Positions 1,708-29,329 are shown, counted from the stretch's first letter. The stretch is DNA of 64,000 bases from Gemmatimonadaceae bacterium (GCA_031423355.1 JANPFJ010000012.1:7640-71639); one strand, 5' to 3'. Numbers and translations: made by a program. Notes: generated by a model not told the origin, from the letters alone.

Positions 1708-2049
1708 TCAGAGCGCGATCGGCTGTCGCGCACGACACGAGGAACGATCCCGCGCCGAAAGCGCACCGGCGCGGCGCAGCACCAGCGATGCATCGAGCGT
1801 GAAGAGCTTCCATCGCACGATCGACGGCGAGGGCAACCCGTTCGGCGCGAGATCCCGGATCGCCACGTCGCCCGGCCACTTCTTGTGCGATACGGTGGTG
1901 ATCATGGCCAGCACGAGGTGATGCGAGCTGTGATTGAATGCGACCGATGAGCAGACCAGTGCCGGCCGGCGCTTGGACGCGTCGCGATCGGAGAACGGGA
2001 ACGGCACGACCACCACATCGCCGGGGCTATAGGTCGGAATAGGCGGCAT
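1708..2049 (-). CDS. type II toxin, PemK/MazF family
   Basis: Starts at the internal ATG 2047-2049. MPPIPTYSPGDVVVVPFPFSDRDASKRRPALVCSS...LAMITT is the classic MazF/PemK N-terminus. It overlaps the upstream antitoxin gene. Confidence 0.8.
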   Translation of the reverse strand: MPPIPTYSPGDVVVVPFPFSDRDASKRRPALVCSSVAFNHSSHHLVLAMITTVSHKKWPGDVAIRDLAPNGLPSPSIVRWKLFTLDASLVLRRAGALSARDRSSCRARQPIAL

Positions 2050-4428: not shown

Positions 4429-7148
4429 CGAGCAATTCGACGATCCCGCGCCTGACTGCCGCCCTCGCCGACCGCTACCGCATCGAGCGCGAACTCGGCG
4501 CTGGCGGCATGGCGACGGTGTACCTCGCGCACGATATCAAACACGATCGCCAGGTCGCCATCAAGGTGCTCAAGCCCGAGCTCGCGGCGGTGCTGGGTGC
4601 CGAGCGGTTCGTGCAGGAGATCAAGACGACGGCGGCGCTGCAGCATCCGCACATCCTGCCACTGTTCGACAGCGGCGCAGCGGATGGCTTCCTGTACTAC
4701 GTGATGCCGTTCATCGACGGCGAAACGCTGCGGGCGAAGCTTGATCGAGAAACGCAGCTGGCCGTCGACGACGCGGTGCGTATCGCGCGCGAAGTCGCCG
4801 ATGCACTCGACTACGCGCACACGCGCGGTATTGTGCATCGCGATGTGAAGCCCGAGAACATCATGCTGCACGGCGGGCACGCGCTGGTTGTCGATTTCGG
4901 CATCGCGCTGGCGGTGAGCGCCGCGGCCGGTGGACGCATGACGGAGACGGGCCTGAGTCTCGGCACACCGCACTACATGAGCCCCGAGCAGGCCACCGCG
5001 GAGAAGGAGATCACCGCCCGCAGCGACATCTACTCGATCGGCTCCGTCCTCTACGAGATGCTCGCAGGCCAACCGCCACATCTCGGCGGCTCGGCGCAGC
5101 AGATCGTGATGAAGATCATCGCCGACGTGCCGCGCCCGTTGCCTGAGCTGCGCAAGTCGGTGCCGCCCAACGTCGCGGCGGCGGTGGCCACATCGCTGGA
5201 GAAGATTCCCGCCGACCGTTTCGCGACGGCCGCCGAGTTTTCGCGCGCGTTGGCGAATTCCTCGTACCGGCGCGCGGACAGCGATGCACCGGGCGCGACC
5301 GCCCGATGGCGCGGACACACGATGCAAGTTGCCTCGCTGGTTGGCGTGGCGGCCCTCGCCATCGGTGTGGTGAGCGCGCGACTGCTGTGGCGTGATGAAC
5401 CGGTGCCGCAGCGCGCGGCGCGCGTGATGTTGGCGTTTCCTGTGGGCCAGGAGCCGCTGTTCGCCGACCTGTCCGTCGGATCCACGCTGACGCAAATGCC
5501 CGACGGGAGTGGGCTGTTGTATTGGGGCGCGGGCACGACGACCACCGGTGCGTTGCTCTCGCGTGAGTGGGACCGGCTCGCCCCAACACGCACGCCGCTC
5601 GCCGTCGAAGAAGGATGCTGCGTAGCGGTCTCGCCGAGTGGCGATTCGATCGCGTACCTCACCAGTCCGCACAAGCTCGTGGTCGTGCCACTGGCGGGCG
5701 GGCGGGCGATGACGGTCGCGGATTCAGGAATGACGGCGATGACGACCGTGGGCGGCGGTGTGGACTGGGCCAGCAACGGGTGGATCTATGCGAGCGGCAC
5801 AACCGGGCTGGTTCGCGTCCGTCCGCAGGGTGGCGCCGTCGAGCGCGTGTCGACCCTCGATACGACCCGGGGAGACGGGGGTCATTTATGGCCGTCCGTC
5901 CTGCCGGGCGCCCGCGCCGCGCTGCTCACGGTGGCTCCGAGACAGGAAAGCGCCGACCTCTCGCGGCGGTCGATCGGCGTGGTGGATTTCGCGACCAGAC
6001 GCGTGGACATCCTGTCGCAGGGCATCCGTGCGCTGTATTCGCCATCGGGCCATCTCATCGTCGTGAAATCGAACGGCGTGGTGTGGGCGGTGCCATTCGA
6101 TGTGCAAACCCACCGCGTAACCGGACGCGAGATCGAACTCGCGGATACCGTGGCCGTGAGGGGCGTGACAGTCGGGACCGCCGACATCTCCCTGTCGTCA
6201 TCCGGAACCGCGGTATACAGCAAAGGCGTGACGCAGTCGCAGGTGGCCGTCTGGGTGGATCGCACCGGAGCCACCACGCCAGTGTCACCTGACCTCGCCG
6301 ACCATGTGGTGGCGGCACTCACCCTGTCCCCCGATGGACGCCGGGTGGTGGTCGGCATGGGCGGAGCGGACGGCACGGTTCATCTCTGGACCAAGACACT
6401 GGGCGGTGGACCCAGGTCGCGCTTCACCTTCGACGGCGTCACCAATGTTCGCGCCGCATGGCGCCCCCGAACCAACGCCATCTCGTATTCCGCCAACCGT
6501 GACGACCTGGGTCGTATGGTCCTTGTCGAACGCAACGCCGATGGAACAGGTGAGGTTCGCAGGCTGACAACCGGTGACCGGCGCGGCATCCCGCACCATG
6601 TCTGGTCACCCGACGGACGGTGGCTGGTTTTTCGCACCGACGATCAGGAGGCGGGCAACGCCGATATCATGGGCATCCGGCCCGGCATCGACAGCGTGGC
6701 GCGCCCGTTGGTGGCGACACCCGCCGAGGAACTCTCGCCGGCGATCTCACATGACGGGCGCTGGCTTGCGTACACTTCCAACGAGACCGGCCCTCGTGAG
6801 GTGTATGTACGGCCGTTTCCCGAGACGGGTAGCGGGCGGTTTCAGGTCTCGACGACCGGCGGCACCACGCCCGTGTGGGGCCGCGACGGCCGCGAGATGT
6901 TCTACATCGACCGCGTGGGCAACATGGTCGCGGTCCCACTCGTGTCCGGCCCGACCTTTCAGGTTGGCGCTGCGAAGGTACTGTTTTCGGCGTCGGCGTA
7001 CGCGTTGAATGCCTTCGCCCGTCAGTTCGACGTCACGCCGGACGGCACGCGGTTCCTCATGTCGCGCGGCGTGAGCGATGGCCAGGTGCACGTGGTGGTG
7101 GTGTTCAATTTCGTCGAGGAACTGAAGCGCCTCGTGGCACGGCCGTGA
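4413..7148 (+). CDS. Ser/Thr protein kinase with a TM segment and a C-terminal TolB-like (PD40/WD40-like) beta-propeller
   Basis: Kinase motifs are GAGGMATVYLA, AIKVL, HRDVKPENIML, DFGIA and SPEQ. The tail has WSPDGRWLVFRT and ISHDGRWLAYTSNETGPREVYVRPF repeats. A GTG at 4425 (GTGA overlap with the upstream stop) is an alternative start. Confidence 0.9.
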   Translation: MDSIVTSNSTIPRLTAALADRYRIERELGAGGMATVYLAHDIKHDRQVAIKVLKPELAAVLGAERFVQEIKTTAALQHPHILPLFDSGAADGFLYYVMPFIDGETLRAKLDRETQLAVDDAVRIAREVADALDYAHTRGIVHRDVKPENIMLHGGHALVVDFGIALAVSAAAGGRMTETGLSLGTPHYMSPEQATAEKEITARSDIYSIGSVLYEMLAGQPPHLGGSAQQIVMKIIADVPRPLPELRKSVPPNVAAAVATSLEKIPADRFATAAEFSRALANSSYRRADSDAPGATARWRGHTMQVASLVGVAALAIGVVSARLLWRDEPVPQRAARVMLAFPVGQEPLFADLSVGSTLTQMPDGSGLLYWGAGTTTTGALLSREWDRLAPTRTPLAVEEGCCVAVSPSGDSIAYLTSPHKLVVVPLAGGRAMTVADSGMTAMTTVGGGVDWASNGWIYASGTTGLVRVRPQGGAVERVSTLDTTRGDGGHLWPSVLPGARAALLTVAPRQESADLSRRSIGVVDFATRRVDILSQGIRALYSPSGHLIVVKSNGVVWAVPFDVQTHRVTGREIELADTVAVRGVTVGTADISLSSSGTAVYSKGVTQSQVAVWVDRTGATTPVSPDLADHVVAALTLSPDGRRVVVGMGGADGTVHLWTKTLGGGPRSRFTFDGVTNVRAAWRPRTNAISYSANRDDLGRMVLVERNADGTGEVRRLTTGDRRGIPHHVWSPDGRWLVFRTDDQEAGNADIMGIRPGIDSVARPLVATPAEELSPAISHDGRWLAYTSNETGPREVYVRPFPETGSGRFQVSTTGGTTPVWGRDGREMFYIDRVGNMVAVPLVSGPTFQVGAAKVLFSASAYALNAFARQFDVTPDGTRFLMSRGVSDGQVHVVVVFNFVEELKRLVARP

Positions 7149-7169
7149 TGAGCACGCGACAGCGGCCGG

Positions 7170-9878
7170 ATGATCATCATGTCTGACGTGCTGCCTCGCC
7201 TCAGTGTCGCCCTCGCCGACCGCTACCGCATCGAGCGCGAACTCGGCGCTGGCGGCATGGCGACGGTCTATCTGGCGCACGATCTCAAGCACGATCGTGA
7301 TGTGGCCATCAAGGTGCTGCATCCACATCTTGGCGCCGCGCTCGGCGGTGAGCGATTCCTGAGCGAGATCAAGACCACCGCACGCCTGCAGCACCCGCAC
7401 ATCCTGCCACTGCTCGACAGCGGTGACGCGGGTGATGGCCTCCTCTACTACGTCATGCCGTTCGTGGCTGGCGAGACGCTGCGCGCGCGACTCGAGCGCG
7501 AGAAGCAGCTCCCGATCGAGGACGCGACCCTCTTCGCGCGAGAGATCGGTGACGCGCTGCAGCATGCACACGCGCAAGGCATCGTGCATCGCGACATCAA
7601 GCCCGAGAACATCCTGCTGCAGGGTGGTCACGCACTGGTGGCCGACTTCGGTATCGCACTCGCCGTGCAGCAGGCCGCAGGCGAGCGCCTGACGCAGACG
7701 GGGATCAGCCTCGGGACGCCGCGCTACATGAGCCCCGAGCAGGCGATGGGCGAGCGCAGTCTCGACACGCGCAGCGACATCTATGCGCTCGGCACCGTCA
7801 CCTATGAAATGCTCACCGGCGACGCGCCATTCACCGGGAGCTCCGCGCAGGCGATCGTCGCCAGGGTCATGACGGAACGGCCGACCGCACCGAGCACGGT
7901 GCGCGACACCATCCCCGCAGGCGTCGAGCGGGCGGTACTCAAGGCGCTTGCCAAGCTGCCTGCCGACCGGCACGCGAGCGCGGCCGAGTTCGTGCGAGCG
8001 ATGCAAGCATCGGTATCGCCGGAGCCCGTCGCCGCCAACGTCGCATCGAGCACTCGTGCATCGCGCCTGCGAGCCGTCGCCAGCGGACTTGCGATCGGCG
8101 CGCTCCTTGGCGCGGGAGCCGCTGCGCTGGCGTTGTGGCCGCGCACGCGCGCGGCTTCGAGTCAGGCCGCGCTCCCCACGCGGCAACAGATCACATTCTC
8201 GGGCCTTGCCCGACGGCCCGCGATCAGTGATGACGGAAGCGTGGTCGCCTACGTCGAGCGTCGATGCACGCCATCAGGCTATGCCGAATCCGGCGAGGAT
8301 GGCACGGGTTCACACTGTCGTTCCTCGCTCATCGTGCAGGACACAGGCGGATCGGCACCGGTCCGTACCATCGACAACGTGCCTGAGATTTCCAACGTGC
8401 GTTGGGCCTCGAATGGCACCGCGCTGGTCGTGGAGGCGAAGCTGGATTCGCTGCGCGAGGGACTGTTCGTCGTCCCACGCCTTGGCGGGACCGTGCGCTC
8501 CCTCGGTGCCGGCGGCGCGATGGACGTCGACTGGTCATCCGACACGATCGTCGTGCTCCGCACGAGCAACGCACCGGAACGAACATCGTTCGCCGTCATG
8601 ATCCCGATTGCCGGCGGTGTTCCGACGGACAGCATCAGACTCCCCGCCTACCGCTTCGACGCGGTCGCGTGGTCACCAAACGGCAGGCTGTTCGCGTTGA
8701 AGTCTCCAACGAAAGTGTGGCTCGTTGGACGCGACGGCATCGTGAGTGATACCACCACCGCATATCCTCGAGCCAGGCTACGATGGTCAACTGACGGCCG
8801 CGGCCTGCTCGTGTTCGCGCCACGGCAACGCGAGGATGACCTGGTCCGCTGGCCGATCTCGGGCGATGGCAAGTTCGACGGAGCGCCGCAAGCGCTCGTG
8901 CCCGGTCTCCTGGTGCTGTACCGCGGCGAGTTCGATGTGGCCCGACGCGCTGGCACCATGGTCATCGTCACCGGCGAGCCAAGAAACGACCTCTGGAGTT
9001 TCAGCACGAGCGACGCATCGAACGCGGCACCAGTCCAGATGACTTCAGGCACGACATGGTATTCCGCACCGACCCTGTCGTCTGACGGGCGCACCTTGTA
9101 CGCGCTCCGCAACGACGCATTGGGCGACAATCTGCATCGGTTCAAGATCGGGAACGACAACCAGAACGGTGAGGCATTGACGTCGTACCGTACGCTGACG
9201 GAGAACGAAATCCATCCGGCGCTGTCGTCCGACGACCGGAGCGTCATTTTCGTCGTCAGCGAAGGACACCAGGAGTGGTCGGTTGGCGTTGACGCCGCGA
9301 CGCTGCGATCGACGCGAGCACCCATCGACGTCGGCGCGCTGGGCGGCGGTGTGCTGGCGCCGAGTCTGTCCGGCAAGCGGTCGGTGCTCTGGTCGTGGGA
9401 TACGGGCCGCCTCCTGCTGCTCTCGGGCACTGACGCGCCACGCGCGCTGCCCATCGCGGATTCCGTGTTGATCAATTCGGTGGCCCTCTCCCCGGACGGG
9501 AACCAGCTCGCGGCCGCCGTGGTGAGCGGCGACGTCGTGCGGCTCATCGCGACCACGATCGATCCCTGGCGGCCACGCACCCTCGGGGAGTTCCCGAAGA
9601 CATTGGCAGATCGTCAGCAGTTTGGATACGATATCTCGCCGATCGTCTGGAGCGCGGATGGCAGCCTGTTGGTCGCGCGGTGGGAGAGTGAACGCCAGGA
9701 GCTGGTGCTGTACCGCCTGGATCCGCGTGGCGGTGCCACGCCGGCGCGCGTCCGAGCGCTTCCACAGCGATGCGCCGCACGGGATGTGGCGATAGCAGCG
9801 AATGCGCCCGTTGGCGCGTGTCGCACCTCGGACTTCAGATCCGACTTGTACCTGTTCTCCGCGCCGGCTGCGCGCTGA
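7170..9878 (+). CDS. Ser/Thr protein kinase with a TM segment and a C-terminal beta-propeller-like domain
   Basis: The kinase motifs are complete (HRDIKPENILL, DFGIA). Tail repeats include WSPNGRLFAL, WSTDGRGLLV, LSSDGRTLYAL, LSPDGNQLAAA and WSADGSLLV. Confidence 0.9.
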   Translation: MIIMSDVLPRLSVALADRYRIERELGAGGMATVYLAHDLKHDRDVAIKVLHPHLGAALGGERFLSEIKTTARLQHPHILPLLDSGDAGDGLLYYVMPFVAGETLRARLEREKQLPIEDATLFAREIGDALQHAHAQGIVHRDIKPENILLQGGHALVADFGIALAVQQAAGERLTQTGISLGTPRYMSPEQAMGERSLDTRSDIYALGTVTYEMLTGDAPFTGSSAQAIVARVMTERPTAPSTVRDTIPAGVERAVLKALAKLPADRHASAAEFVRAMQASVSPEPVAANVASSTRASRLRAVASGLAIGALLGAGAAALALWPRTRAASSQAALPTRQQITFSGLARRPAISDDGSVVAYVERRCTPSGYAESGEDGTGSHCRSSLIVQDTGGSAPVRTIDNVPEISNVRWASNGTALVVEAKLDSLREGLFVVPRLGGTVRSLGAGGAMDVDWSSDTIVVLRTSNAPERTSFAVMIPIAGGVPTDSIRLPAYRFDAVAWSPNGRLFALKSPTKVWLVGRDGIVSDTTTAYPRARLRWSTDGRGLLVFAPRQREDDLVRWPISGDGKFDGAPQALVPGLLVLYRGEFDVARRAGTMVIVTGEPRNDLWSFSTSDASNAAPVQMTSGTTWYSAPTLSSDGRTLYALRNDALGDNLHRFKIGNDNQNGEALTSYRTLTENEIHPALSSDDRSVIFVVSEGHQEWSVGVDAATLRSTRAPIDVGALGGGVLAPSLSGKRSVLWSWDTGRLLLLSGTDAPRALPIADSVLINSVALSPDGNQLAAAVVSGDVVRLIATTIDPWRPRTLGEFPKTLADRQQFGYDISPIVWSADGSLLVARWESERQELVLYRLDPRGGATPARVRALPQRCAARDVAIAANAPVGACRTSDFRSDLYLFSAPAAR

Positions 9879-18980: not shown

Positions 18981-19076
18981 GCGCCGGAAGCTAGAGTCGA
19001 CATATCACCATGTCAAGATGTCGAGTAGGCGCGAGATCCCACTGACGGTCTGGGCAATGACCGTGCGACCCGCGTA

Positions 19077-19106
19077 CCTGTTGGTGCCTGTTGGTGCCTG
19101 TTGGTG
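19077..19106. repeat. 10-bp tandem repeat, cctgttggtg x3
   Basis: Read directly from the sequence; it lies just downstream (lower coordinates) of the IstB relic. Confidence 0.8.
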
Positions 19107-19148
19107 CCGGTGGTCCTCATTGTGCGCGTGGCGCGCCTCGCCGCGACC

Positions 19149-19331
19149 AGTGTCGATCAGCGCGCCGGCCATGACGTCATCACGTAAGATCTCGCCCCAC
19201 GCCTCGAAGCCCTTGTTGCTGGTGAGCACCGTGGAGGCGCGTTCGTAGCGCCGACTCATCAGCTGGTAAAACAATTGCGCGCCGGTCCGTGAGATGGGGA
19301 GATACCCGATCTCACCGATCACCATCAATTC
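19149..19331 (-). pseudogene. IS21-family IstB helper ATPase, ~60-aa internal relic
   Basis: LMVIGEIGYLPISRTGAQLFYQLMSRRYERASTVLTSNKGFEAWGEILRDDVMAGALID matches the Walker B/sensor region of IstB. No N- or C-terminal parts are present. Confidence 0.75.
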
Positions 19332-19540
19332 CCGACACCGTGACTGGTGTCGAGACTCGCAAGCGCGCCTGTCGTTTACACCGTGATTCCAGGCGATCCT
19401 TGCCAGCGTCGTCGTGCCGCTCGATCTTCGCTGCGTCGTGCTCGTAGCTGCCCGATCCGTTCGCCATGCGTGACACTCGATGAAATGAGGGAGGTGGCTA
19501 CCGTGAAACGCCGCATCATGCACTCGTTCCGCGGTACCGA

Positions 19541-20812
19541 ATGAGCGCCAGCTCCACGAAGTCGACCGCATCGATCCCGCCGAGCCAAACCGCATGGCCG
19601 GCGTGGTACACCGTCGTCCTGCTCTGCAGCGCGGCGGTCTTCATCGCCTATATCGACCGCACCAACATCTCGGTCGCGTCGATTGCGATGCAGGAGCAGT
19701 TCCACTGGACCGAGACGACGAAGGGTTACGTACTCTCGTCGTTCTTCATCGGGTACCTGATCCTGCAGGTCGCGAGTGGCACACTGGCCAACCGGTACGG
19801 TGGAAGAATCGTGCTGGGCGTGGCTGTGTTCTGGTGGTCGCTGTTCACGATCGTGACGCCCCCTGCCGCGCTGCTGTCGTTTTCGGCGCTGATCGCCGCG
19901 CGAATCGCGCTCGGCCTCGGTGAAGCCGCGGTCTTTCCCGCATCGATCAACATGATCGGCCGCTGGGTTCCGCCAGCCAAGCGGTCGCGCGCGGTGGCGA
20001 TCTGCATCAGCGGCCTCTCCCTCGGCACCGTGGTCTCGCTGCCGCTGACTGGTGCACTGGTGAAATCGCAGGGATGGCCAGCACCGTTTTACGTCTTCGG
20101 TGTGGTCGGGCTGGTGTGGACGGTGATCTGGTTCATGAGTGTGCGGTCCGGGCGGGCGAGCGTCGATGACGAAGCGGATGAGGCGCCGGTGGCGCGGGGC
20201 GGTATTCCGTATGCGCGCATCGTCCGCACGCCCGCGGTGTGGGCGATCATCGCCTGCCACTTCGCCAACAATTGGATTCTCTACCTGTTGCTGGCGTGGC
20301 TGCCAAGCTACTTCAAGTCGACGTTCGGCGTCTCATTGACCAACGCTGGGCTCCTCTCCGCCGCACCGTGGCTCTGCACCTTCGTGACGGCGAACATCTC
20401 CGGGGTTGCGGCGGATCGGATGATCGCCGCCGGCCGCAGCGCGGGATTCACGCGCAAGCTGCTGCAGACCCTTGGTACGGGCGGCTCCGCCTGCGTGCTA
20501 CTGCTGCTGCCGCACGTGACCACGGCCGGCGCGGGTGTCGCGGTGATGTGCTGCGCGTCGGGGCTGCTGGGACTCTGTCAGGCAGGGTTCGCCGCGAACG
20601 GCTTCGACATCGCGCCGCGGTATGCTGATGTCATCTGGGGGATCAGCAACACCTTCGGCACCATTCCGGGGATCGTGGGCGTGGCCATCACCGGGTGGCT
20701 GGTGGATCGTACCGGCAGCTACGACACGCCATTTCTGGTGAGTGCCGGTATCGGTTTCGCGGCGACGGCGATCTATCTCTGGCTCGGTTCGGGCGTGCGG
20801 CAGATCGACTGA
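19541..20812 (+). CDS. MFS transporter (anion:cation symporter / ACS-like)
   Basis: A 423-aa protein with about 12 hydrophobic spans. FIAYIDRTNISVA, LANRYGGR and RIALGLGEA are ACS-family motifs. Confidence 0.85.
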   Translation: MSASSTKSTASIPPSQTAWPAWYTVVLLCSAAVFIAYIDRTNISVASIAMQEQFHWTETTKGYVLSSFFIGYLILQVASGTLANRYGGRIVLGVAVFWWSLFTIVTPPAALLSFSALIAARIALGLGEAAVFPASINMIGRWVPPAKRSRAVAICISGLSLGTVVSLPLTGALVKSQGWPAPFYVFGVVGLVWTVIWFMSVRSGRASVDDEADEAPVARGGIPYARIVRTPAVWAIIACHFANNWILYLLLAWLPSYFKSTFGVSLTNAGLLSAAPWLCTFVTANISGVAADRMIAAGRSAGFTRKLLQTLGTGGSACVLLLLPHVTTAGAGVAVMCCASGLLGLCQAGFAANGFDIAPRYADVIWGISNTFGTIPGIVGVAITGWLVDRTGSYDTPFLVSAGIGFAATAIYLWLGSGVRQID

Positions 20813-21167: not shown

Positions 21168-21304
21168 CGCTCGCGCTCCATGCTCCCACCACGAGACTGT
21201 CGTGCTCGTTGAGTGTGTCGACCGTCCCGTCGAGGCGAAAGACTTTCGCGATGCGTCGTCGCGGGTCGATCACCCAAACGAGTTTTTTGTGCCCACGGCC
21301 AGCC

Positions 21305-21715
21305 AGTCAGCCACCTTCCCCTTCGGGATAGGAACTTCAATCATGGCGGGTTGACGATCCGTCGAGCATCCGGCGCGATCGCCGACCTCGCCAGCGCCGC
21401 GTGACGGGCGTCGGCGTGCGTGACGTGCCCCGGCTCGCGGGGGCCCGCGTCGATGGGGGGCTCCGCGCGCCGGCGTGAGTCGCGGCGCGGAGACTATCGC
21501 GGACGGCCCGTCGGCTGCCGTCGGCTGCGCTTTCCCCGTTTGCCGCGGGGGGCGGTTGCCATACCAGCCACAGTATCGCGTGATGACGTGGCCCATGTCG
21601 GGGATGTGCACCCGCACCCGGGCCAGGAACTCCAGCGGGTCCACGGTCTCCGTGCCCCCCGTCGGACCCTCCGACTTGTCGGAGCGATAGGTCACGCTGA
21701 AGCCGCTTTCGCAGC
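21305..21715 (-). mobile_element. IS91-family (Y2 rolling-circle) transposase relic: C-terminal part with an internal deletion, plus the end motif
   Basis: TYRSDKSEGPTGGTETVDPLEFLARVRVHIPDMGHVITRYCGWYGNRP...HAGARSPPSTRAP is parallel to the fuller copy at 37860-38300. The end motif gattgaagttcctatcccgaa (minus strand) lies at about 21310-21335. Confidence 0.75.
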
Positions 21716-21876: not shown

Positions 21877-22251
21877 ATGCCGAAGATTCTGCTCATCGAA
21901 GACAACGAAATGAACCGCGACATGCTCTCGCGCCGACTGATCAAGCGCGGCTACGAGGTCGTGATTGCGGAAGATGGACAGGTCGGAGTCGATTTGGCGC
22001 GGCGTGAGATGCCGGCCGTGATCCTGATGGACATGAGCTTGCCGGTGATCGATGGATGGCAGGCGACGAGAATGCTCAAGGCGGACGAGACGATGCGGCA
22101 TATTCCGATCATCGCGCTTACCGCGCATGCCATGACGGGTGACGAGCAGAAGGCCCGTGAGGCCGGCTGCGACGACTTCGATACGAAGCCTGTCGATCTG
22201 GCCCGGTTGCTTGGCAAGATCGAGGCATTCCTCGGCCCCGCCGCCTCGTAA
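21877..22251 (+). CDS. single-domain response regulator (CheY-like receiver)
   Basis: KILLIEDNEMNRDML...VILMDMSLPVIDGW...IIALTAHAM...DFDTKP carries the D-D-K receiver residues. Confidence 0.9.
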   Translation: MPKILLIEDNEMNRDMLSRRLIKRGYEVVIAEDGQVGVDLARREMPAVILMDMSLPVIDGWQATRMLKADETMRHIPIIALTAHAMTGDEQKAREAGCDDFDTKPVDLARLLGKIEAFLGPAAS

Positions 22252-22269
22252 ACACCTGAGGGGGCACGC

Positions 22270-24210
22270 ATGCTCGCGCCAGACGCCGTAGCGGAATTGC
22301 GACACGATTTGCGCACGCCGGTGAACATCATCAGCGGATACGCAGAGATGATTCTCGAGGACGTCGGCGGCGAGGATGCCGATTCGGCGCTCGTCGGCCC
22401 TCTGCGAGCGCTTGGAGGGGAGATGCGCGACATCCTCCGACTCGTCGGCACTGTCCTGCCACCATCGGCCGCCGCCGTGTCGATGCACGACGTGCTGGGA
22501 TTGCGCGCACAGCTGCGAACCAATCGGGATCGGGTGGTCGCGCTGCTCAGCGCCGCGGCGGCCGCACCGGCGGCCGCGCGGGAAGACGTCGCTGCCGACC
22601 TGCGTCGGATGCAGGCCGCCGCCGCCAACATCGCCGGCGCGATCAGTGATCCGGTCGACGCCACGCCGCGGAGCGCCGACGTCATCCCGTCCGGCGTTAC
22701 CGCCCGCGCGGACGCGATCGCACCGGCCGACATTCTCGTCGTCGACGACGTCGAGGACAATCGGGTCGTTCTTGGCCGGCGACTCGAGCGGTTGGGCCAC
22801 CGTGTCACCACGGCATCGAACGGGATTGAAGCGCTTGCGTGCACGACGGTCACGTCATTCGACCTGATCTTTCTGGACGTGATCATGCCGGGTATGGACG
22901 GCTTCGAAACGTTGACGCGCCTGAAGGCGCGTGAGGACACGCGCGAAATCCCCGTGGTGATGATTTCCGCCCTCGACGACCTGGCCAGCGCGACGCGTTG
23001 CATCGCAGCGGGCGCGGAGGATTATCTCCCGAAGCCGTTCGACCCGCAGATCCTGCGCGCCCGTGTCGGCGCATCGCTCGAACGCAAGCGACTCCGCGAC
23101 CGCGAGCACGATTTTCTCGCGCAGACGATGCGCGTCATCGATGCCGCGCGGGCGGTCGAGGAGGGGTGTTATGTCTCCGATGTGCTGGCAGACGTCGGCA
23201 CACGCGGTGACGAACTCGGTCGGCTTGCTCGCGTCTTCGACAACATGGCGTGCGAGGTTCGTACCCGCGAAGCGCGACTGCAGCAGCAACTGCGCGATTT
23301 GCGACGTGAGATCGATGCCGTCCGCCGTGCCACGTCTCCGCCCCGCGCACCCGTCCGGCCCGAGTTCGACACCACCGTGACGTCCAGCGCGACGCTCCAG
23401 ATCGGCCGAGTCATCGGAGGGCGATACGAAGTTTTCGAGATCGCCGGCGTCGGCGGTATGGGCAGCGTCTTCCGCGCCACCGACCGTGAACTGGGGGGCG
23501 AGGTCGCCTTGAAGGTCGTGCGGCTGGATCTGCTGGAGAACGACCCGGCACTGCTGGAGTGGCTCAAGAGCGAGATTCGGCTCAGTCGGCGCATCACGCA
23601 CCCCAACGTCGTGCGCACGCATGATTACGTCGAGGCCGACGGCCTGTCGTTCATCACGATGGAGTATGTCGCGGGGGTGTCGTTGCGTGGCTTGATCGAC
23701 TCGCGCGGCGCGATCGCACCGAGCGCTTGCATCGCCTTGGGAGCACAGCTGTTCCGTGCGTTGCACGCCGCGCACGAGCAGGGTGTCGTGCACCGCGACG
23801 TGAAGCCGGACAATGTGCTCCTCTCCGACGACGGCGTCCTCAAGGTCATGGACTTCGGCATTGCGCGGCTCGTGCAGACAAGCGACACCGCCAGCCTCGA
23901 CCATGCAGGCACTCTGGCCTACATGGCGCCGGAACAGATTCTCGCCGAGCCGCTCGATGGCCGCACCGACTTGTATGCCGCAGGGGTGGTGTTGTACGAG
24001 GCGCTCACGGGACGGCTCCCCTACAGCGAGTCGAGCCCGATGGCGCTCTTCGCGCGCATGATGACCAGCAAGCCGCCCGATGCGGCCGAACTCAGGCCAG
24101 ACGTGTCACCGGCGCTTTCCGGGCTGCTGATGTCGTTGATGGCGGTCACGCCGGATGACCGCCCGTCATCCGCACGCAAGGTCGAGATCGCCCTCGAAGG
24201 GATGCGCTGA
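22270..24210 (+). CDS. multidomain signalling protein: DHp (HisKA-like H-box, no ATPase domain), receiver, HAMP-like linker and Ser/Thr kinase
   Basis: The H-box is ELRHDLRTPVNIISGYAEMILED. REC is ILVVDDVEDNR...FLDVIMPGMDGF...MISAL...DYLPKPF. The linker is DELGRLARVFDNMACEV. Kinase motifs are GVGGMGSVFRA, ALKVV, HRDVKPDNVLL, DFGIARL and APEQ. Confidence 0.85.
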   Translation: MLAPDAVAELRHDLRTPVNIISGYAEMILEDVGGEDADSALVGPLRALGGEMRDILRLVGTVLPPSAAAVSMHDVLGLRAQLRTNRDRVVALLSAAAAAPAAAREDVAADLRRMQAAAANIAGAISDPVDATPRSADVIPSGVTARADAIAPADILVVDDVEDNRVVLGRRLERLGHRVTTASNGIEALACTTVTSFDLIFLDVIMPGMDGFETLTRLKAREDTREIPVVMISALDDLASATRCIAAGAEDYLPKPFDPQILRARVGASLERKRLRDREHDFLAQTMRVIDAARAVEEGCYVSDVLADVGTRGDELGRLARVFDNMACEVRTREARLQQQLRDLRREIDAVRRATSPPRAPVRPEFDTTVTSSATLQIGRVIGGRYEVFEIAGVGGMGSVFRATDRELGGEVALKVVRLDLLENDPALLEWLKSEIRLSRRITHPNVVRTHDYVEADGLSFITMEYVAGVSLRGLIDSRGAIAPSACIALGAQLFRALHAAHEQGVVHRDVKPDNVLLSDDGVLKVMDFGIARLVQTSDTASLDHAGTLAYMAPEQILAEPLDGRTDLYAAGVVLYEALTGRLPYSESSPMALFARMMTSKPPDAAELRPDVSPALSGLLMSLMAVTPDDRPSSARKVEIALEGMR

Positions 24211-24239
24211 CCACGAGCGCCGGCCGGTTCATCCGGCCG

Positions 24240-26468
24240 TCACGGTGTCTGGTAGCTCCGCAAATGCTCGAGCAGCGTGCTCGTGTCCGTGCCGTGTTTC
24301 GTCACCAGATCCGTGATGTGGCCACCCAGGCGTTCACGATCCTCGATCGTCAGGTCCTTCGCGGTGAGGACGATGACGGGGACAACCGAAAATTCCGGTC
24401 GCAGCCGAAAGGCTTCGAGGAAATCGAAGCCGTCCATGACAGGCATGATCAGGTCGAGCAACACCAACGCCGGTGTTTCGGCGGTCGCCACTGCCAACGC
24501 CTCGGCCCCGTTGGTCGCCGTGCGCACCGTCCAGCCGCGCTCCGTCAGCGTGCGCTCCAGCTGCTCGCGCATGGCGGCATCGTCGTCCACGACGAGCACC
24601 GTCCCACCCGGCTGCAGCACGCGACCGTGCATGCGATGCAGGACGGCGCTGAGGCGATCCCAGTCGACCGGCTTCTGCAAGTAGTCGTAGACGCCAAGGG
24701 CGATGCCGAGATCCCGGCTGTCCGTCACGGTGACCAGGATCACCGGAATGTCCGCCGTGGCTGCGTCGGCCTTCAGCGCCGCGATCACGGCCCAACCATC
24801 CATCCCTGGCATCATGATGTCGGTGATGACGGCGATCGGACGCAGGGTCTTGGCCAGCGCCACGCCCTCGGAACCGTTGCTCGCGGTATACACCGCAAAG
24901 CCCTCGCGCGTGAGGAACCGCACCATCAGATCGAGCAACGCGGGATCGTCATCGATCGCAAGCACCGTGGGCCCGCTCAACGGCGTGACGGTCGCAGATT
25001 GCCCGCCGACGACTGGTCCGCGCCCGGGCACCGTTGCCGGAAGATTGACGGTGAAGACCGAGCCGACCCCGGGTGTACTCGTCACCGCGATGTCACCGCC
25101 GAGGAGCTGGCAGAACTTGCGGCTGATCGCGAGCCCGAGCCCGGTGCCACCATACTTGCGAGTCGTGGATTCGTCCGCCTGCGCGAACGCCTGAAATACC
25201 CCGGACAGCTGCTCCGGCGTCATGCCGATGCCGCTATCCTCGACGGTGAATTGCACCCAGTCGCCGTCGGCGCGCGTGGTACGCGTCACGGTCAGCGCGA
25301 TGCGACCTCCCTCCGTGAACTTGCTGGCGTTGCTCAACAGATTGAACAGCGTCTGCCGCAGCTTCGTCAGATCAGTGTGCATCGATCCCGCCGATGACGC
25401 ACCGGTGATCTCGAGACGATTCCCGCTCTTCCGGACCAGCGGGGCCACCGTCGCTTCGACGTCGCGCAGCATGGTGGCCACGTCGACCGATTCGGTGTAG
25501 ATGGTCATCTTGCCCGCCTCGACCTTCGAAAGATCGAGCACGTCGTTGATCAGCGACAGCAGGTGCCTCCCCGCTCCATTGATCTTCTTGAGATCGCTTG
25601 CCAGCGCCTCGGCACCGTCGTCGTCCGCATCGTCGGCCAGCATTTCGCTGTAGCCGATGATCGCATTGAGCGGCGTGCGCAGTTCGTGGCTCATGTTCGC
25701 CAGGAACGTGCTCTTGGTCCGGTTTGCGGACTCCGCGTCCTCCTTGGCACGCAGCAAGCCGTCGCTGAACTCGACGTTCCGCGCCCGCAGATGCAACAGG
25801 GAATCACGCAGTTGCGCGAAGGCCTGCGTCAGCTGGTCGATCTCGGTGGAGTGCCATGCGGTCGTGATCTTCACGTCGTACCGTTCGTCACGCAAGGCGT
25901 TGGCGACCACCGTCAGCTCACGCACTGGTTGCGACACCGTCCGGACGATGAGGAGCAGCGCGCCCAGCGCCACCACGACCAGACCGCCCAGCGTCTGATA
26001 CAACGGCCGGTTGAGCCTCGCGATCTGCGCGTCCAGCCGCGCGCGCGATGCCGCCACGACAACGTACCCCGTCAACGGTTCAGTCTTCACGGTCGCCTGC
26101 GCGTACAACAACGCGTCGTTCGCGCGGCGCAACACCGCCGTCGAGTCGACCGTTCGCGGGTTCACCGCGAACACACTTTCACCGCCCTGATCGTCGCGTT
26201 GCACGACTGCGACGTACTCGAAGTCGTTCGTCGACGTAGTCACCTCGATCGTTCGCGCCAGTGCCTTGAAGTCCTCGCGCGTGATCGACAGCTCGATGCT
26301 GAGCGCCGTGATGCGCGCCAGTTCCTGCATGCGCTGCTCGGTGTTCGCGCGGAACAATCGGGTCTGACGCTGCGGGTAGTAGACGCCCAGGGCCGAGAGC
26401 GAGACCGTGAGCAGGATGGCCAGCGGGAACCAGATCCGAAAGCCGATCCCGTTGATGAGCGCGCGCAT
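24240..26468 (-). CDS. hybrid sensor histidine kinase (TM sensor, HAMP, HisKA, HATPase, two receiver domains)
   Basis: Motifs are [35 protein letters not shown]1 VLAIDDDP...[11 protein letters not shown] and REC2 VLVVDDDA...[11 protein letters not shown]. Confidence 0.9.
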
Positions 26469-26473: not shown

Positions 26474-27007
26474 TTACCGAACCTGGATCACGAGTTCCTT
26501 CGGGACGTCGCTCCTGGCCGGCACCATTGCGACGGTGCCCGGGGTGCGCTTGACGAACGCGATCACGTCGTCCGCTGTGTCGAGGAACACGGGCGGATTG
26601 GCGCGGCCCTGGAACACCAGCGCCAACCAGTACTTCTGCATCGCCATCCGCGTCATGTCCAGCGCAACCCGCGCGAAATCTTCCGCATAGTCGGCGCGAC
26701 TCGACGGCAGGACGATGATCACTGTCTGCTTCGACGCCCAGATGGATCGCTCACCACGGAAGATCGCGTGCAGTGCGGCGGCGTCCACGTCGGACGCGCC
26801 GGTGCGGTTGCCGATCAACACGAACTCGGCTTTCTGCGCGCGGGCATGCGCGTCAACGGAGTCATGGCTCGTCGTGACCTGTCCCGGCGTCTCGGCACGC
26901 ACCACGCGTGGCAGCGAGCACATTGCCCCAACCATTGCGACGAGCAGCAGCGCCAGGTGCGTCAGCGCTGCGATTCGCACCAAGGGGACCTGGCGTGTCG
27001 GCCGCAT
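26474..27007 (-). CDS. periplasmic substrate-binding-like (PBP2/phosphate-binding-like) protein
   Basis: A 177-aa protein with a signal peptide. [21 protein letters not shown]...[14 protein letters not shown] resembles small PstS-like proteins often encoded next to sensor kinases. The stop/start junctions with both neighbours are tight. Confidence 0.55.
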
Positions 27008-28107
27008 CAGAAACCGTACGCCAGCTGCATGCGCAATCCCAGCGTCTGCGCACGCGTGATCGGCAGCGATGCCGTGGGGCTGTTCACCGGGTAGCGCGAA
27101 TATTCGTACTGGTGCTCGATCTGCGTCTTGATGCTCACCATCGCGCTGATCTCGAACCGCATGCCAGCCGCGACCTTGCGCTTGTCGAGCGGATACACAT
27201 GGAGGTCGTTGTCGGCGACGCGGATGTAATCGGCAAGCGCGTACGGAGTGACACGTTCACTGACGCGCACGCCCAGGTATATGAAGTTTGAGAGGTTGTG
27301 TGCCGTGCCCAGGCTGTCCGTGTGGCTCTGGCCGACGCTCAGTTCATTCAGCACCTCGATGCGATGGCCAAACCACGCCAGCGACGCGCTCTCCATCTGG
27401 TAGTTGAGTGGACCAGTGTAGAGCGTTGCCGAATGCCTCGCGGACAGCGTCTGGCCCGAGTGCGGATCAGTGCCGTTGCGCGACATGTAGTCCCGGTAGT
27501 ACGACGCTCCGATGCGTAGGCCTACGACCGGCTTCACATGAAATGCCACGGTGACTGCAGGCGTCACGCCGGCGTCCGAGACGTCGGTCGATGACAGGCC
27601 GTTCCCGACCACCACGTCGTAGCCGAACTTCGCGCGGCCGAGGTTCTGCCCCTGCGCCTGCACGCCGAGCGTGTGCAGTGGCACGATCGAGGTGAAAGCG
27701 TACGGGCGGTCCACCACCGGGAAGAACAAGCGACCATGGTGGTACACATCATTCCAGTAGTTCACCGGTGTATGCACCTTGCCGGCGATGATCGAATGAT
27801 TGTTCAGATAGCTGTACCGGACGAGCGCTCGCTCGATGCTCGGCAGGTAGCCGGTGGCCGACGACCCACTCGGCTTGATCACGGCCTCGCCCAGAAACGT
27901 CAGCCGGTCACTCAATGACGAGAACACCGTCAGGACGTGTTCACCAACCGTGAAATAGCCGTCGGTGCGGTCCGTCTTGCTGACGGTCGATTCGAGATAT
28001 CCGAACCCATTCGCCTGCGTTCGGTGCTGCGCCGCGAGACGCGACGGCAGGATGGTCACGCCCAGCGCGGCCGCAACAGCAAGGGATGTCACGACGGCAC
28101 GCTTCAT
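27007..28107 (-). CDS. outer-membrane beta-barrel porin-like protein
   Basis: Starts at ATG 28105-28107, giving MKRAVVTSLAVAAALGVTILPSRLAAQ. It has an alternating amphipathic pattern and the C-terminal motif QLAYGF. Confidence 0.7.
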   Translation of the reverse strand: MKRAVVTSLAVAAALGVTILPSRLAAQHRTQANGFGYLESTVSKTDRTDGYFTVGEHVLTVFSSLSDRLTFLGEAVIKPSGSSATGYLPSIERALVRYSYLNNHSIIAGKVHTPVNYWNDVYHHGRLFFPVVDRPYAFTSIVPLHTLGVQAQGQNLGRAKFGYDVVVGNGLSSTDVSDAGVTPAVTVAFHVKPVVGLRIGASYYRDYMSRNGTDPHSGQTLSARHSATLYTGPLNYQMESASLAWFGHRIEVLNELSVGQSHTDSLGTAHNLSNFIYLGVRVSERVTPYALADYIRVADNDLHVYPLDKRKVAAGMRFEISAMVSIKTQIEHQYEYSRYPVNSPTASLPITRAQTLGLRMQLAYGF

Positions 28108-28239
28108 CGGCGATGCGTCTCGGACAAGGGTGTTCCGACTTTCAGGCCACGAGGGCAAAACTAGCGGACGCTCTCAGCATTGGTAGGCGAGCGAGGCAAG
28201 GACTGCCGAGGCCTTGCCTCGCCTCCGTACTGGTCCTGC

Positions 28240-28674
28240 CTAGCGCTGTGCACCGTCCCAGAAACTGCGAAGCTGACGGAGTCCGCGAGACCGCACACCG
28301 TCCAGCGATGCGAGGTGCTCCTTCCAGCGCGCGGTCGAGAGATTCAGGAGCTCAGAGGCCGCCGGTTGCGCGAAGCCCATGTCCCAGTCGTCGAAGCTGC
28401 GCACCGTGATGGGTTCATCGAGGAGGATCATGATGCCATGGTGGCGCCTGCTGGCCTGAATCCGGTCGAAGACTTGGCGCACACCTTCAGCAGGCCCCTC
28501 GAGACACTGCACAATGTTGCCGTCATTGTGCAGCAGCACCCCGGTCACGCCAAGCGCACGATTGTTCCGACGAATGTTATCCAGCAGAATCTCCAGCTCC
28601 GCCTCGCTCAACGGGCGAGTTGCGGAGCTCAGATAGACAAGCGTCCGGAGCGCAGGTTCGGTCGTCACGCTCAC
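28240..28674 (-). CDS. BLUF-domain blue-light FAD photoreceptor (stand-alone)
   Basis: LRTLVYLSSATRPLSEAELEILLDNIRRNNRALGVTGVLLHNDGNIVQCLEGPAEGVRQVFDRIQASRRHH carries the BLUF signature (Y, Q and M/W context). It has a GTG start. Confidence 0.8.
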   Translation of the reverse strand: MSVTTEPALRTLVYLSSATRPLSEAELEILLDNIRRNNRALGVTGVLLHNDGNIVQCLEGPAEGVRQVFDRIQASRRHHGIMILLDEPITVRSFDDWDMGFAQPAASELLNLSTARWKEHLASLDGVRSRGLRQLRSFWDGAQR

Positions 28675-28731
28675 GAACCTATCGCGTGGTAGCACGATTG
28701 GCGTCCCGCCACCACGGCACGGTATCGGCCG

Positions 28732-28865
28732 TCGGGTGCGTGACGTGCCCCGGCTCGCGGGGGCCCGCGTCGACGGGGGGCTCCGCGCGCCGGCGTGTGC
28801 CGGCCGCGCAGCACGGGTGCGGAGGTGGGTGAGGATCTGGTCGATCACCGCCGTCTGCGTGGCAC
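28732..28865 (-). mobile_element. IS91-family transposase relic (extreme C-terminal ~45 codons)
   Basis: TQTAVIDQILTHLRTRAARPAHAGARSPPSTRAPASRGTSRT. The nucleotides at 28737-28797 nearly duplicate 21418-21478. Confidence 0.7.
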
Positions 28866-28987
28866 CAGTGTGGTCCAGCTGTCTGACGTGGCGGCAGCGG
28901 CGGCGGCGCGGAACCCGGCGCTTTACGAATTGCTCGCACTGGTTTTTGCCGTGCGTGCCAGTATTCAGTGCGCGGGCATCGCGCCGC

Positions 28988-29329
28988 GCGCTGGCTGCGC
29001 AACCCAAGTTGTACTTCGCCGACACGGGAATCGCTGCGGCGTTTCGGCCAACGGACAGCGCACGGGTCGCCCCGGACGCCATCGGTGCGGCCCGCGAAGG
29101 GCTGGTCTATCAGCAGCTCGCGGCGTGGTGCGAGGCGGACCGCGATGCACGACTCTCGACGTGGTGCACCACCGGCGGCGTCGACGTGAATTTCGTCGTC
29201 GAAACGCCAACCGGTCTGAGCGCGGTCGAGGTGAAGGGCGGTCACACGCTACGGCGCGCTGATCGTCGTGGGCTGCCGGCGTTTCACGACGAGTTCCCTG
29301 AGGCGCGGCTGGTGGCACTGACTGACTGA
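28988..29329 (+). pseudogene. DUF4143 (AAA-ATPase-associated) C-terminal fragment
   Basis: QPKLYFADTGIAAAF...GLVYQQLAAW...GGVDVNFVVETPTGLSAVEVKGG matches the DUF4143 tail. The AAA N-terminal part is absent. Confidence 0.6.

Follow-up and report, generated by a model that had tools for sequence, protein, structure and literature searches.

How could a protein that begins with a histidine-kinase phosphoacceptor motif, carries no ATPase domain, and ends in a Hanks-type Ser/Thr kinase receive a signal and pass it on? Such a hybrid protein is encoded in a 64,000-nucleotide stretch of DNA from a Gemmatimonadaceae bacterium (GCA_031423355.1 JANPFJ010000012.1:7640-71639; hereafter the window). Its gene lies between one for a single-domain, CheY-like receiver and a convergent gene for a hybrid histidine kinase (HK). 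ORF coordinates and Pfam matches bear out this three-gene arrangement and the domains that the original prediction had assigned to it (Table 1).

Table 1. Features of the locus, in window positions
Feature	Position	Strand	Basis or remark
IS91-type (Y2 transposase) relic, just upstream of CheY	21270..21695	-	Pfam Y2_Tnp, C-terminal part only
Single-domain receiver, CheY-like, 124 aa	21877..22251	+	Pfam Response_reg, 82.7 bits
Spacer, 18 nt, with Shine-Dalgarno-like GAGGGGG run ahead of the hybrid-gene ATG	22252..22269	+	sequence reading
Hybrid protein, 646 aa: double DHp, linker, REC, HAMP and coiled coil, linker, Hanks Ser/Thr kinase	22270..24210	+	
DHp hairpin A, aa 4-62; H-box ELRHDLRTPVN; candidate phospho-acceptor His12, codon 22303-22305	22279..22455	+	
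DHp hairpin B, aa 72-118; duplicate without His, degenerate LRxP (LRTN in the window), invariant D110	22483..22623	+	
Flexible tether, aa 127-148, double DHp to receiver	22648..22713	+	pLDDT <50
Receiver, aa 154-258; acidic pair D159/D160, phospho-acceptor D203 (codon 22876-22878), S233, Y252, K255	22729..23043	+	
Long helix aa 259-298 from the last REC helix, HAMP, coiled coil aa 315-355	23044..23334	+	AlphaFold
Hanks-type Ser/Thr kinase domain, aa 386-646	23425..24207	+	Pkinase, 171 bits
Convergent membrane hybrid HK: 2 transmembrane segments, HAMP, HisKA, HATPase, REC, REC	24240..26468	-	Pfam

The hybrid protein begins with two tandem DHp hairpins

The H-box at the start of the hybrid protein had been noted to resemble that of the neighboring HK, and this resemblance is not due to chance. 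Residues R11, H12, R15, T16, P17, N19, G23, and E30 were invariant among 119 homologs that are ~47-60% identical overall, H12 was also invariant in an alignment of 50 sequences, and the His, Arg, and Pro of the H-box were kept across four output classes. Pfam detected HisKA at residues 7-36 (28.1 bits; cut-off 26.9), a match to the profile's first helix only. With hhalign, residues 5-72 aligned with both helices of the whole DHp (dimerization and phosphoacceptor) domain of the partner kinases described below (probability 99%, E 8e-18, 34% identity), and a second run comparing hairpin A with the partner-HK DHp gave an E value of 2e-22. An AlphaFold monomer model contained helices at residues 4-32 and 39-62 with pLDDT >90. 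By both hhalign and AlphaFold, hairpin A is a complete two-helix hairpin of the HisKA/DHp type (PF00512). Counting from the His, helix-1 positions H+7, +11, and +12, which we took as the DHp specificity positions, are identical (N, G, Y) in the module and the partner HKs.

Hairpin A is followed by a degenerate copy of itself. Comparison of the two halves of the module with hhalign gave a probability of 90-91% and an E value of ~1e-6, the score being 32.5 compared with a maximum of 13.0 over 40 column-shuffled controls, and the second half matched the HK DHp at 87% probability. On this evidence, residues 1-120 comprise a tandem pair of DHp hairpins, of which only the first has kept the His. The earlier "DHp-only" label was thus right about a DHp without an ATPase domain and wrong about a single hairpin. 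In the AlphaFold monomer model, residues 1-120 consist solely of helices, four in number, packed into a compact bundle (pTM 0.87), and the best Foldseek shapes were up-down helical bundles (TM ~0.5, E >0.05). The tandem hairpins probably fold as a single-chain four-helix bundle, for which a domain-swapped dimer may be an alternative. The tether behind them is variable and gapped in the family alignment, differing between members in both length and sequence.

No ATPase domain follows, as had been predicted. Pfam found no HATPase_c match after the DHp of the hybrid protein, Foldseek found no ATPase fold for the module, and hhalign gave a probability of only 0.4% for a match of residues 67-126 to the HK ATPase domain. 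The all-helix AlphaFold model, together with Foldseek and hhalign, excluded the cryptic ATPase fold that had been named beforehand, for residues 70-150, as a finding against this reading. Since the hybrid protein lacks an ATPase domain, its own chain cannot phosphorylate H12. A Pfam scan to E 0.01 detected no Hpt domain (PF01627) in the hybrid protein, while the same model found six elsewhere in the genome, each within a large open frame (525-1676 aa). Hpt structures were not among the top Foldseek matches of the module, and a PDB sequence search with a limit of E 1 listed neither Spo0B nor ChpT.

The receiver and Ser/Thr kinase look active

The receiver (Pfam match at residues 155-266, 95.2 bits) has D159, D160, D203, S233, and K255 invariant in the 119 homologs, with Y252 at least 90% conserved. 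The kinase region matched Pkinase at residues 386-635 (171 bits) and a PknB-type NCBIfam model (269 bits), and its characteristic residues are K415, E435, HRD (508-510), N515, DFG (528-530), T548, PE (554-555), D567, and R631. Among the 119 sequences, K415, E435, H508-R509-D510, N515, D528-F529-G530, P554-E555, and R631 were invariant. Judged by these residues, the receiver and the Hanks kinase both look active, and the Pfam matches agree with the receiver and complete Hanks-type kinase originally described.

The linker between these domains had been called HAMP-like. Residues 288-327 matched PF00672 with 22.6 bits, just below the cut-off of 25. Residues 288-345 aligned at 42% identity with the HAMP domain (47 bits) of a dCache-HAMP-kinase paralog (L007), and several orthologs have a precomputed PF00672 match. 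This alignment confirmed the HAMP assignment. As the HAMP-kinase half occurs elsewhere behind a periplasmic dCache sensor, HAMP is a genuine input port of the Hanks kinase. Helix, HAMP, and coiled coil presumably form a dimeric, signal-transmitting stalk.

A CheY and one HK subfamily accompany the hybrid gene

In 49/49 loci, a CheY gene lies directly upstream of the hybrid gene on the same strand. The paired genes often overlap by 4 bp at other loci, and those in the window are probably co-transcribed. A search for a sigma-70-like promoter found none. The window CheY keeps the acidic pair, the phospho-Asp (D52), the Thr, and the Lys. In a receiver tree, the CheYs of these pairs form a separate clade (support 100/99), as do the internal receivers of the hybrid proteins (support 100/96). 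The two nevertheless have in common a distinctive DHp-contacting helix 1, DNxxNRxxLxRRL: identity between CheY and the internal receiver is 56% in helix 1 versus 35% overall, and between CheY and the HK receivers it is only 32%. A common helix 1 is expected if a single His module has to dock both receivers.

The convergent HK has, by Pfam, HAMP, HisKA, HATPase_c, and two REC domains and no Hpt match, in line with the original prediction. Its core is 55-63% identical to HKs linked with the CheY-hybrid pair in other genomes and at most 46% identical to any other HK of its own genome. Compared with an operon HK, identity was 54% over the transmitter and both receivers (next best, 34-42%), and in the receiver tree its two receivers group with those of the partner HKs, in the REC1 and REC2 clades. 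It is the only member of the partner subfamily in its genome. A survey of co-occurrence, which had been proposed as a check, revealed an HK of this subfamily beside the pair in 47/49 loci; both exceptions are contigs ending within ~1 kb upstream. The HKs at these loci often have PAS/GAF sensors and often stand in tandem, and many partner HKs have their own receivers. Pfam scans of ten partner-subfamily HKs gave no Hpt match, and the genes called at the loci that we inspected showed none. The convergent HK is likely the phosphate source for a relay. Across the loci, it is CheY, rather than the position of the HK, that is the constant partner of the hybrid gene. Some operons (L163, L167) hold only one non-hybrid HK, CheY, and the hybrid gene, the minimal set for a KinA/Spo0F/Spo0B/Spo0A-type relay.

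A candidate phosphorelay with a Ser/Thr kinase output

Domain anatomy, the duplication, the conserved chemical residues, and the conserved gene partnership are direct observations. The fixed partnership with CheY and one kinase subfamily suggests a built-in phosphorelay that switches a eukaryote-type kinase. We lean, though only slightly, toward a model in which CheY, the hybrid protein, and the convergent HK form one multistep, Spo0F/Spo0B/Spo0A-like phosphorelay with a Ser/Thr kinase as its output. The membrane HK would autophosphorylate the His of its own DHp and pass the phosphate to the Asp of the stand-alone CheY, and possibly also to its own receivers. The phosphate would then move to His12 of the ATPase-less double DHp, serving as a functional analog of Hpt or Spo0B, and from there to the tethered receiver that follows, at Asp203. 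Phosphorylation of this receiver would act through the last REC helix, HAMP, and the coiled coil to alter the activity of a dimeric Hanks kinase, which would phosphorylate itself and its substrates. We infer each phosphotransfer step and its direction, as well as the oligomeric state and the on/off effect of phosphorylation on the kinase.

The comparative evidence fits the elements of such a relay that had been anticipated: the ATPase-less DHp is a candidate His-phosphotransferase, with H12 and the H-box invariant across the family; the Hpt-less hybrid HK that could feed it is the sole co-travelling subfamily member in the genome; and control of a Ser/Thr kinase as the end point is consistent with an active-looking receiver and kinase. 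The unfailing presence of CheY fits as well. As a mere dimerization relic would be expected to lose its His, the invariance of H12 and the H-box supports function. Transfer from Asp to His onto a kinase-type DHp has precedents in RedD to RedE His24 (PMC2755868) and in MrrA to LovK/PhyK (PMC5964349). As a counterpoint, the model gives the HK's own two receivers no explained role.

The conserved H-box would fit a phosphatase equally well, as the HisKA phosphatase motif (H-E/D-x-x-T plus N19) is intact. If so, the HK would phosphorylate CheY and/or D203 directly, and the double DHp would be a phosphatase or gate that dephosphorylates its own receiver or CheY, setting the lifetime of the signal. 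The critical residues (D/E at H+1, T16 at H+4, and N19) are invariant, and the partner HK DHp, with the same helix-1 contact residues, could serve D203 directly and leave H12 dispensable. RedE, which is HK-like and does not autophosphorylate, dephosphorylates RedF~P independently of its His (PMC2755868). However, this activity needed ADP and hence an ATPase domain (PMC2755868), which is absent from the hybrid protein. HisKA phosphatase activity is not strictly His-dependent, yet H12 is invariant in all members and output classes examined, and a phosphatase alone leaves the constant presence of a separate CheY unexplained. We regard this explanation as unlikely, if plausible enough to keep in view.

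The closeness of hairpin A to the partner-HK DHp, with the same H-box, and the co-inheritance of the partner subfamily with the CheY-hybrid pair would also suit a split kinase. The ATPase domain of the partner HK would phosphorylate His12 in trans, H12 would pass the phosphate to D203, and CheY would either compete for phosphate as a sink or belong to a branch of its own. In EnvZ, the DHp and ATPase domains can complement each other in vitro when separated. In normal kinases, however, a tether joins the ATPase domain to its DHp, and it is unusual for a foreign protein to be phosphorylated efficiently in trans. A split kinase also leaves unexplained both the strict pairing and translational coupling with CheY and the helix 1 common to CheY and the internal receiver, and we consider it quite improbable. 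Least credible is a module without phosphoryl chemistry, a remnant of a hybrid HK kept for structure or docking, which would hold the receiver in place or recruit partners; the hybrid protein would then be a receiver-regulated Ser/Thr kinase that the HK phosphorylates directly. Pseudo-kinase DHp domains with regulatory roles exist in DivL and RetS, both among the closest solved sequences to the module in a PDB sequence search, but the His is usually gone from DHp remnants, as in DivL, where Tyr takes its place. In this family, the His is invariant together with seven more H-box residues at ~50% overall identity, and the His, Arg, and Pro hold in all four output classes. Hairpin B has lost these residues, which shows relaxed selection within the same protein, unlike in hairpin A.

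Relation to known phosphotransfer systems

The phosphorelay that we favor would have the same order as the Bacillus subtilis sporulation phosphorelay (KinA-E, Spo0F, Spo0B, Spo0A), namely sensor kinase(s), a single-domain receiver, an ATPase-less DHp-type His phosphotransferase, and a REC-output protein, and the gene set of the locus (HKs, CheY, ATPase-less His module, REC-output) maps onto it one to one. In contrast to the B. subtilis relay, the phosphotransferase and terminal response regulator are in one polypeptide, and many partner HKs bring receivers of their own. The module consists of a tandemly duplicated DHp and, in the AlphaFold model, lacks the alpha/beta pseudo-ATPase domain found in Spo0B; its sequence similarity to Spo0B is undetectable beyond the general DHp type; and the output, reached via HAMP, is a Hanks Ser/Thr kinase rather than the DNA-binding domain of Spo0A. 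ChpT of the Caulobacter CckA-ChpT-CtrA/CpdR pathway is likewise a DHp-derived His phosphotransferase; it draws phosphate from a hybrid HK without Hpt, at the receiver, and hands it to terminal receivers. ChpT forms a homodimer and has a degenerate ATPase-like domain, whereas the hybrid protein lacks such a domain and supplies the second hairpin within one chain. The module would resemble Hpt domains (PF01627; ArcB, Ypd1, LuxU) in predicted shape and role, as a probable one-chain four-helix bundle with one His, presumably exposed, that shuttles phosphate between receivers. Unlike in Hpt domains, the His of the module lies in a classical HisKA H-box and its origin is a DHp duplication, so the likeness would be convergence, not membership.

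Two-component domains and Hanks-type kinases also meet in other proteins. Cyanobacterial HstK has a complete histidine kinase, and rice CHARK also has a receiver domain, in a domain order different from that of the hybrid protein. To our knowledge, neither has an ATPase-less DHp ahead of a receiver. CHARK is a CHASE-domain receptor Ser/Thr kinase (PMC7814049). Like HstK, it unites both kinds of domain in one protein and so links His-Asp to Ser/Thr signaling. RedE of Myxococcus xanthus RedCDEF is a kinase-type DHp protein that works with a stand-alone receiver and takes phosphate from RedD on its His; in contrast to the hybrid protein, it keeps its ATPase domain, is mainly an ADP-dependent phosphatase, and is unfused to a receiver or output (PMC2755868).

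A widespread family with several outputs

The hybrid protein family was present in 44/301 sampled Gemmatimonadota genomes and in >100 metagenome clusters, with H12, the receiver D203, and all Hanks catalytic motifs invariant. By these counts, the architecture is a large conserved family, not a one-off. Together with the duplicated DHp and the constancy of CheY, the size of this family goes beyond the original prediction. A literature search found no published description of a double-DHp/REC/HAMP/Ser-Thr-kinase family.

Elsewhere, the same double-DHp and REC cassette stands ahead of PP2C, cyclase, and HK outputs. We tentatively propose, with somewhat more doubt than conviction, that the tandem-duplicated, ATPase-less DHp could be an unrecognized, widespread class of single-chain histidine phosphotransfer module, a DHp-derived equivalent of Hpt that forms, with its tethered receiver, a portable relay-receiver cassette. 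If so, this cassette would plug multistep phosphorelays into many outputs: here a eukaryote-type Ser/Thr kinase under direct His-Asp-His-Asp control, and elsewhere PP2C phosphatases, nucleotide cyclases, and histidine kinases of a second tier.

Genes downstream of the hybrid gene are not conserved across loci. In the window, IS relics stand in place of the region upstream of the CheY-hybrid pair, and synteny with a relative (L085, 85% identical) starts only from position 21810. We take the IS91-type relic to be the mark of a rearrangement that took away the ancestral upstream neighbors.

The hybrid gene lies between CheY and a convergent histidine kinase

The original prediction had described three open reading frames, encoding a single-domain receiver (CheY, 124 aa), a 646-aa hybrid protein and a convergent 742-aa hybrid histidine kinase (HK), and all three were found where it had placed them (see table). 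Pfam assigned HAMP, HisKA and HATPase_c domains to the convergent HK and also, as proposed, two receiver domains and no Hpt domain. The CheY stop codon and the ATG of the hybrid gene are separated by an 18-nt spacer containing a GAGGGGG run. Scanning upstream of CheY for sigma-70-like promoters gave no site, a result that carries no information in this phylum.

Features of the locus, with domain positions in residues of the hybrid protein
Feature	Position	Strand	Source or score
CheY	21877-22251	+	ORF
Hybrid protein	22270-24210	+	ORF
Convergent hybrid HK	24240-26468	-	ORF
HisKA fragment	residues 7-36		Pfam, 28.1 bits (cut-off 26.9)
Receiver	residues 155-266		Pfam
HAMP-like stretch	residues 288-327		Pfam, 22.6 bits (below cut-off, 25)
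Protein kinase domain	residues 386-635		Pfam, 171 bits
IS91-type Y2-transposase C-terminal relic, upstream of CheY	21270-21695	-	
IS21 IstB fragment, upstream of CheY	19005-19595	-	
dCache_3-HAMP-Ser/Thr kinase paralog, related locus L007	8852-11056	+	HAMP, 47 bits

Directly upstream of the convergent HK and on its strand are two genes (26474-28158, minus strand) whose stop and start codons are adjacent or shared. One product (383 aa, ending in AYGF) resembles outer-membrane proteins and the other (177 aa) looks secreted; neither has a Pfam match. These genes and the HK may form a three-gene sensing operon. Two genes past it, an ORF at 28240-29082 (minus strand) encodes a protein with a BLUF domain for blue-light sensing (Pfam, 94.5 bits).

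Gene order is shared with the closest relative, locus L085, only from 21810 onwards, 67 nt before the CheY start. With the two transposase remnants upstream of CheY, we read this as a rearrangement linked to IS elements. The PAS-HK-REC kinase gene upstream in L085 has a 77% identical copy on another contig of the window's genome (G000:C530:15501-17402).

The N-terminal module is predicted to be a duplicated DHp hairpin

Profile-profile comparison aligned residues 5-72 of the hybrid protein with both DHp helices of the partner HKs, the kinases found beside CheY-hybrid pairs (probability 99%, E 8e-18). Thus, a full DHp is present, more than the H-box alone. In an AlphaFold model built with 119 sequences (mean pLDDT 86.6), the module consists of helices at 4-32, 39-62, 72-97 and 100-118, followed by a disordered tether (127-148), the receiver (154-258), a long helix extending the last helix of the receiver (259-298), a further helix (315-355), a second disordered linker and then the kinase domain. 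Residues 1-131 modelled alone gave a pLDDT of 94.4 and a pTM of 0.87. Foldseek returned no significant PDB match for these residues, the nearest shapes being up-down helical bundles (talin R4, pectin-methylesterase inhibitor and the copper-storage protein Csp). The absence of a HATPase domain from the hybrid protein, claimed from the sequence at the outset, was borne out, as only helices were modelled up to residue 120 and Foldseek detected no ATPase fold; a cryptic fold at residues 70-150 was sought by both approaches and not found.

The two halves of the module, residues 3-66 and 67-126, aligned in register over 52 columns (probability 90-91%, E about 1e-6), with a score of 32.5 compared to a maximum of 13.0 among 40 column-shuffled controls. 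With a second, less diverse alignment the match was weaker (46%, E 2e-4). The LRTP of the H-box aligns with a conserved LRxP in helix 3, in which conservation does not extend to the His, and the invariant D110 aligns with the invariant Asp of the kinases' DLxKI. A PDB profile match to HK853 that extended beyond the DHp had raised the possibility that residues 73-120 are a vestigial ATPase stub. Direct profile comparison led us to reject it, as the second half matches the partner-HK DHp at a probability of 87% (E 4e-6) and the ATPase domain at one of 0.4%. Judged from these profiles, the second helix pair is a duplicated DHp hairpin.

The hybrid protein is conserved in part of the phylum

A word-indexed protein search recovered more than 120 full-length clusters of relatives (47-85% identity), and nearly all named clusters were from Gemmatimonadota MAGs. 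NCBI annotates them only as "protein kinase" and JGI as "CheY-like". Most hits of a kinase-motif pattern search of genome contigs were unrelated Ser/Thr kinases, and no more than 6 were relatives of full length. Full-length orthologs occur in 44 of 301 sampled genomes of the phylum, all within four families; three belong to the window's order and the fourth, represented by a single genome, shares only its class. In alignments of 34 and 119 relatives, invariant residues include R11, H12, R15, T16, P17, N19, G23 and E30 of the H-box; D159, D160, D203, S233 and K255 of the receiver; and the Hanks motifs K415, E435, HRD 508-510, N515, DFG 528-530, PE 554-555 and R631.

Sixty further sampled genomes carry only a paralog sharing residues about 286-646, a dCache_3-HAMP-kinase receptor that is 42% identical to the hybrid protein across HAMP and kinase. 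This identity and the strong HAMP score of the paralog confirm the HAMP assignment in the hybrid protein. Among the sampled genomes the paralog is commoner than the DHp-REC form, which suggests that the DHp-REC cassette took the place of a membrane sensor. A full-length ortholog is missing from genome G287, which belongs to the window's genus and carries the HAMP-kinase paralog alone; thus, the system is patchy even inside one genus.

CheY and a partner kinase accompany the hybrid gene

We examined 49 loci, from 40 species-representative genomes, 8 metagenome contigs and the window. At every one, a single-domain receiver gene lies directly upstream of the hybrid gene on the same strand, often with a 4-bp overlap. 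At 47 loci there is at least one adjoining HK whose transmitter core shares 55-63% identity with the core of the convergent HK in the window; at the other two, the contig ends within about 1 kb upstream. In the main clade, tandem GAF-PAS kinases, one to three of them, are encoded upstream on the same strand, each with no, one or two receivers; none of the ten partner-subfamily HKs scanned with Pfam has an Hpt domain. In the subclade that includes the window, with L085 (85% identity), L086 and L087, the partner is downstream and convergent, and at L089 it is upstream and divergent.

Within its own genome, the closest relative of the window's HK core is at most 46% identical. Searching the window's genome with an operon-type HK from another genome gave the convergent HK as top match (54%, spanning the transmitter plus both receivers), with the runners-up at 34-42%. 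A tree of 90 receiver domains resolved CheYs, internal receivers, first HK receivers and second HK receivers into four clades (each with at least 99/96 support), and the receivers of the window's HK fell within the two HK clades. Together, neighbourhood, HK-core identity and the receiver tree argue that CheY, hybrid protein and partner HK are co-inherited. On sequence grounds, the convergent HK is this genome's form of the partner, with a membrane sensor replacing GAF-PAS.

A relay ending in a Ser/Thr kinase is the favored model

The reading we consider somewhat better than even is that the module is a histidine way-station in a phosphorelay that would run from the partner HK through CheY and/or the receivers of the HK, then H12 and the internal receiver, to the kinase. 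As the hybrid protein lacks an ATPase domain, H12 could be phosphorylated only from outside. H12, D203 and the chemical residues of the kinase are all strongly constrained; that the module is a non-chemical relic is very improbable. The minimal operons, at L163 and L167, comprise one non-hybrid HK, CheY and the hybrid gene, which corresponds to the KinA/Spo0F/Spo0B/Spo0A scheme with the last two components fused. At the DHp helix-1 positions H+7, +11 and +12, which we took as specificity positions, both module and partner HKs have N, G and Y. CheY and the internal receiver have in common a distinctive DHp-contacting helix 1 (DNxxNRxxLxRRL), with 56% identity there compared to 35% overall; CheY and the HK receivers are only 32% identical in this helix. 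A common helix 1 is what a shuttle that docks both receivers would require.

Two other readings keep the module active: H12 could be trans-phosphorylated by the ATPase domain of the HK, which is rather improbable, or the module could serve as a phosphatase or gate, which we regard as unlikely, if less so. For the relay, Asp-to-His transfer onto a kinase-type DHp is documented, from RedD to RedE (PMC2755868). Two further arguments were set aside. Criteria for telling intermediate from terminal receivers (aromatic switch residue, FATGUY motif; PMC9981736) gave no discrimination, and both receivers keep an aromatic residue (CheY F101, internal receiver Y252). A shortage of Hpt domains is a weak argument, as the genome does carry them, though only in large open frames.

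Downstream of D203, the last helix of the internal receiver is predicted to continue straight into HAMP and a coiled coil. This continuity, and the presence of the same HAMP-kinase unit behind the periplasmic sensor of the paralog, make it most likely that phosphorylation of the internal receiver acts on a dimeric kinase by way of the HAMP stalk.

The module precedes several outputs

Histidine way-stations of multistep phosphorelays are thought to be Hpt domains or rare Spo0B/ChpT proteins, and for many hybrid kinases the phosphotransfer partner has not been identified. Between His-Asp and Hanks-type Ser/Thr systems, cross-talk is usually all that is observed. The proposed system would work like the Bacillus sporulation relay and CckA-ChpT, as a variant of the multistep phosphorelay. 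The module lacks the pseudo-ATPase domain of Spo0B/ChpT and has no Hpt profile match, which places it outside both classes on these tests; its sequence is that of a HisKA DHp, but it is no kinase. A full-text search of open-access papers and bioRxiv preprints, in which absence is no proof, found no description of the CheY-hybrid architecture or the tandem DHp module. As a way-station, the module would be a third, independently evolved solution beside Hpt and Spo0B/ChpT and would help to find partners for hybrid kinases that lack an Hpt domain, in Gemmatimonadota and elsewhere. It would also exemplify clearly how a bacterial His-Asp relay can be wired straight into a Hanks-type Ser/Thr kinase. 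The module is invisible to current annotation, which names these proteins only by output domain or a generic two-component label.

Searching 1.84 billion representative proteins with the double-DHp profile recovered the whole module (profile positions about 2-135) from proteins that vary widely in length, one of them encoded by a Betaproteobacteria MAG. In Pfam scans of 20 such proteins, the part behind module and receiver was a HAMP domain only, a SpoIIE/PP2C phosphatase, an entire HisKA-HATPase transmitter or a class III cyclase, the last in some cases together with several tandem hairpins. The helix-1 His and helix-4 Asp are conserved throughout, and a His is absent from helix 3. Three proteins, P0121 (906 aa, six matched stretches), P0125 and P0134, are class III cyclases behind a receiver and several tandem DHp hairpins; thus, hairpin duplication can exceed two copies.

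Two observations concern L086. At about 6967-7692, on the strand opposite the hybrid gene, tblastn detected an HK core of the partner type (65% identity) at a place for which the source gene calls give only small ORFs on the other strand; this HK gene may be broken or miscalled. Near the CheY-hybrid pair, 446-1912 (minus strand) encodes a 488-aa protein with an ATPase-less single-hairpin HisKA (42 bits), a receiver and a SpoIIE/PP2C phosphatase. Its gene adjoins STAS and anti-sigma-kinase-like genes, and it may represent an opposing phosphatase branch.
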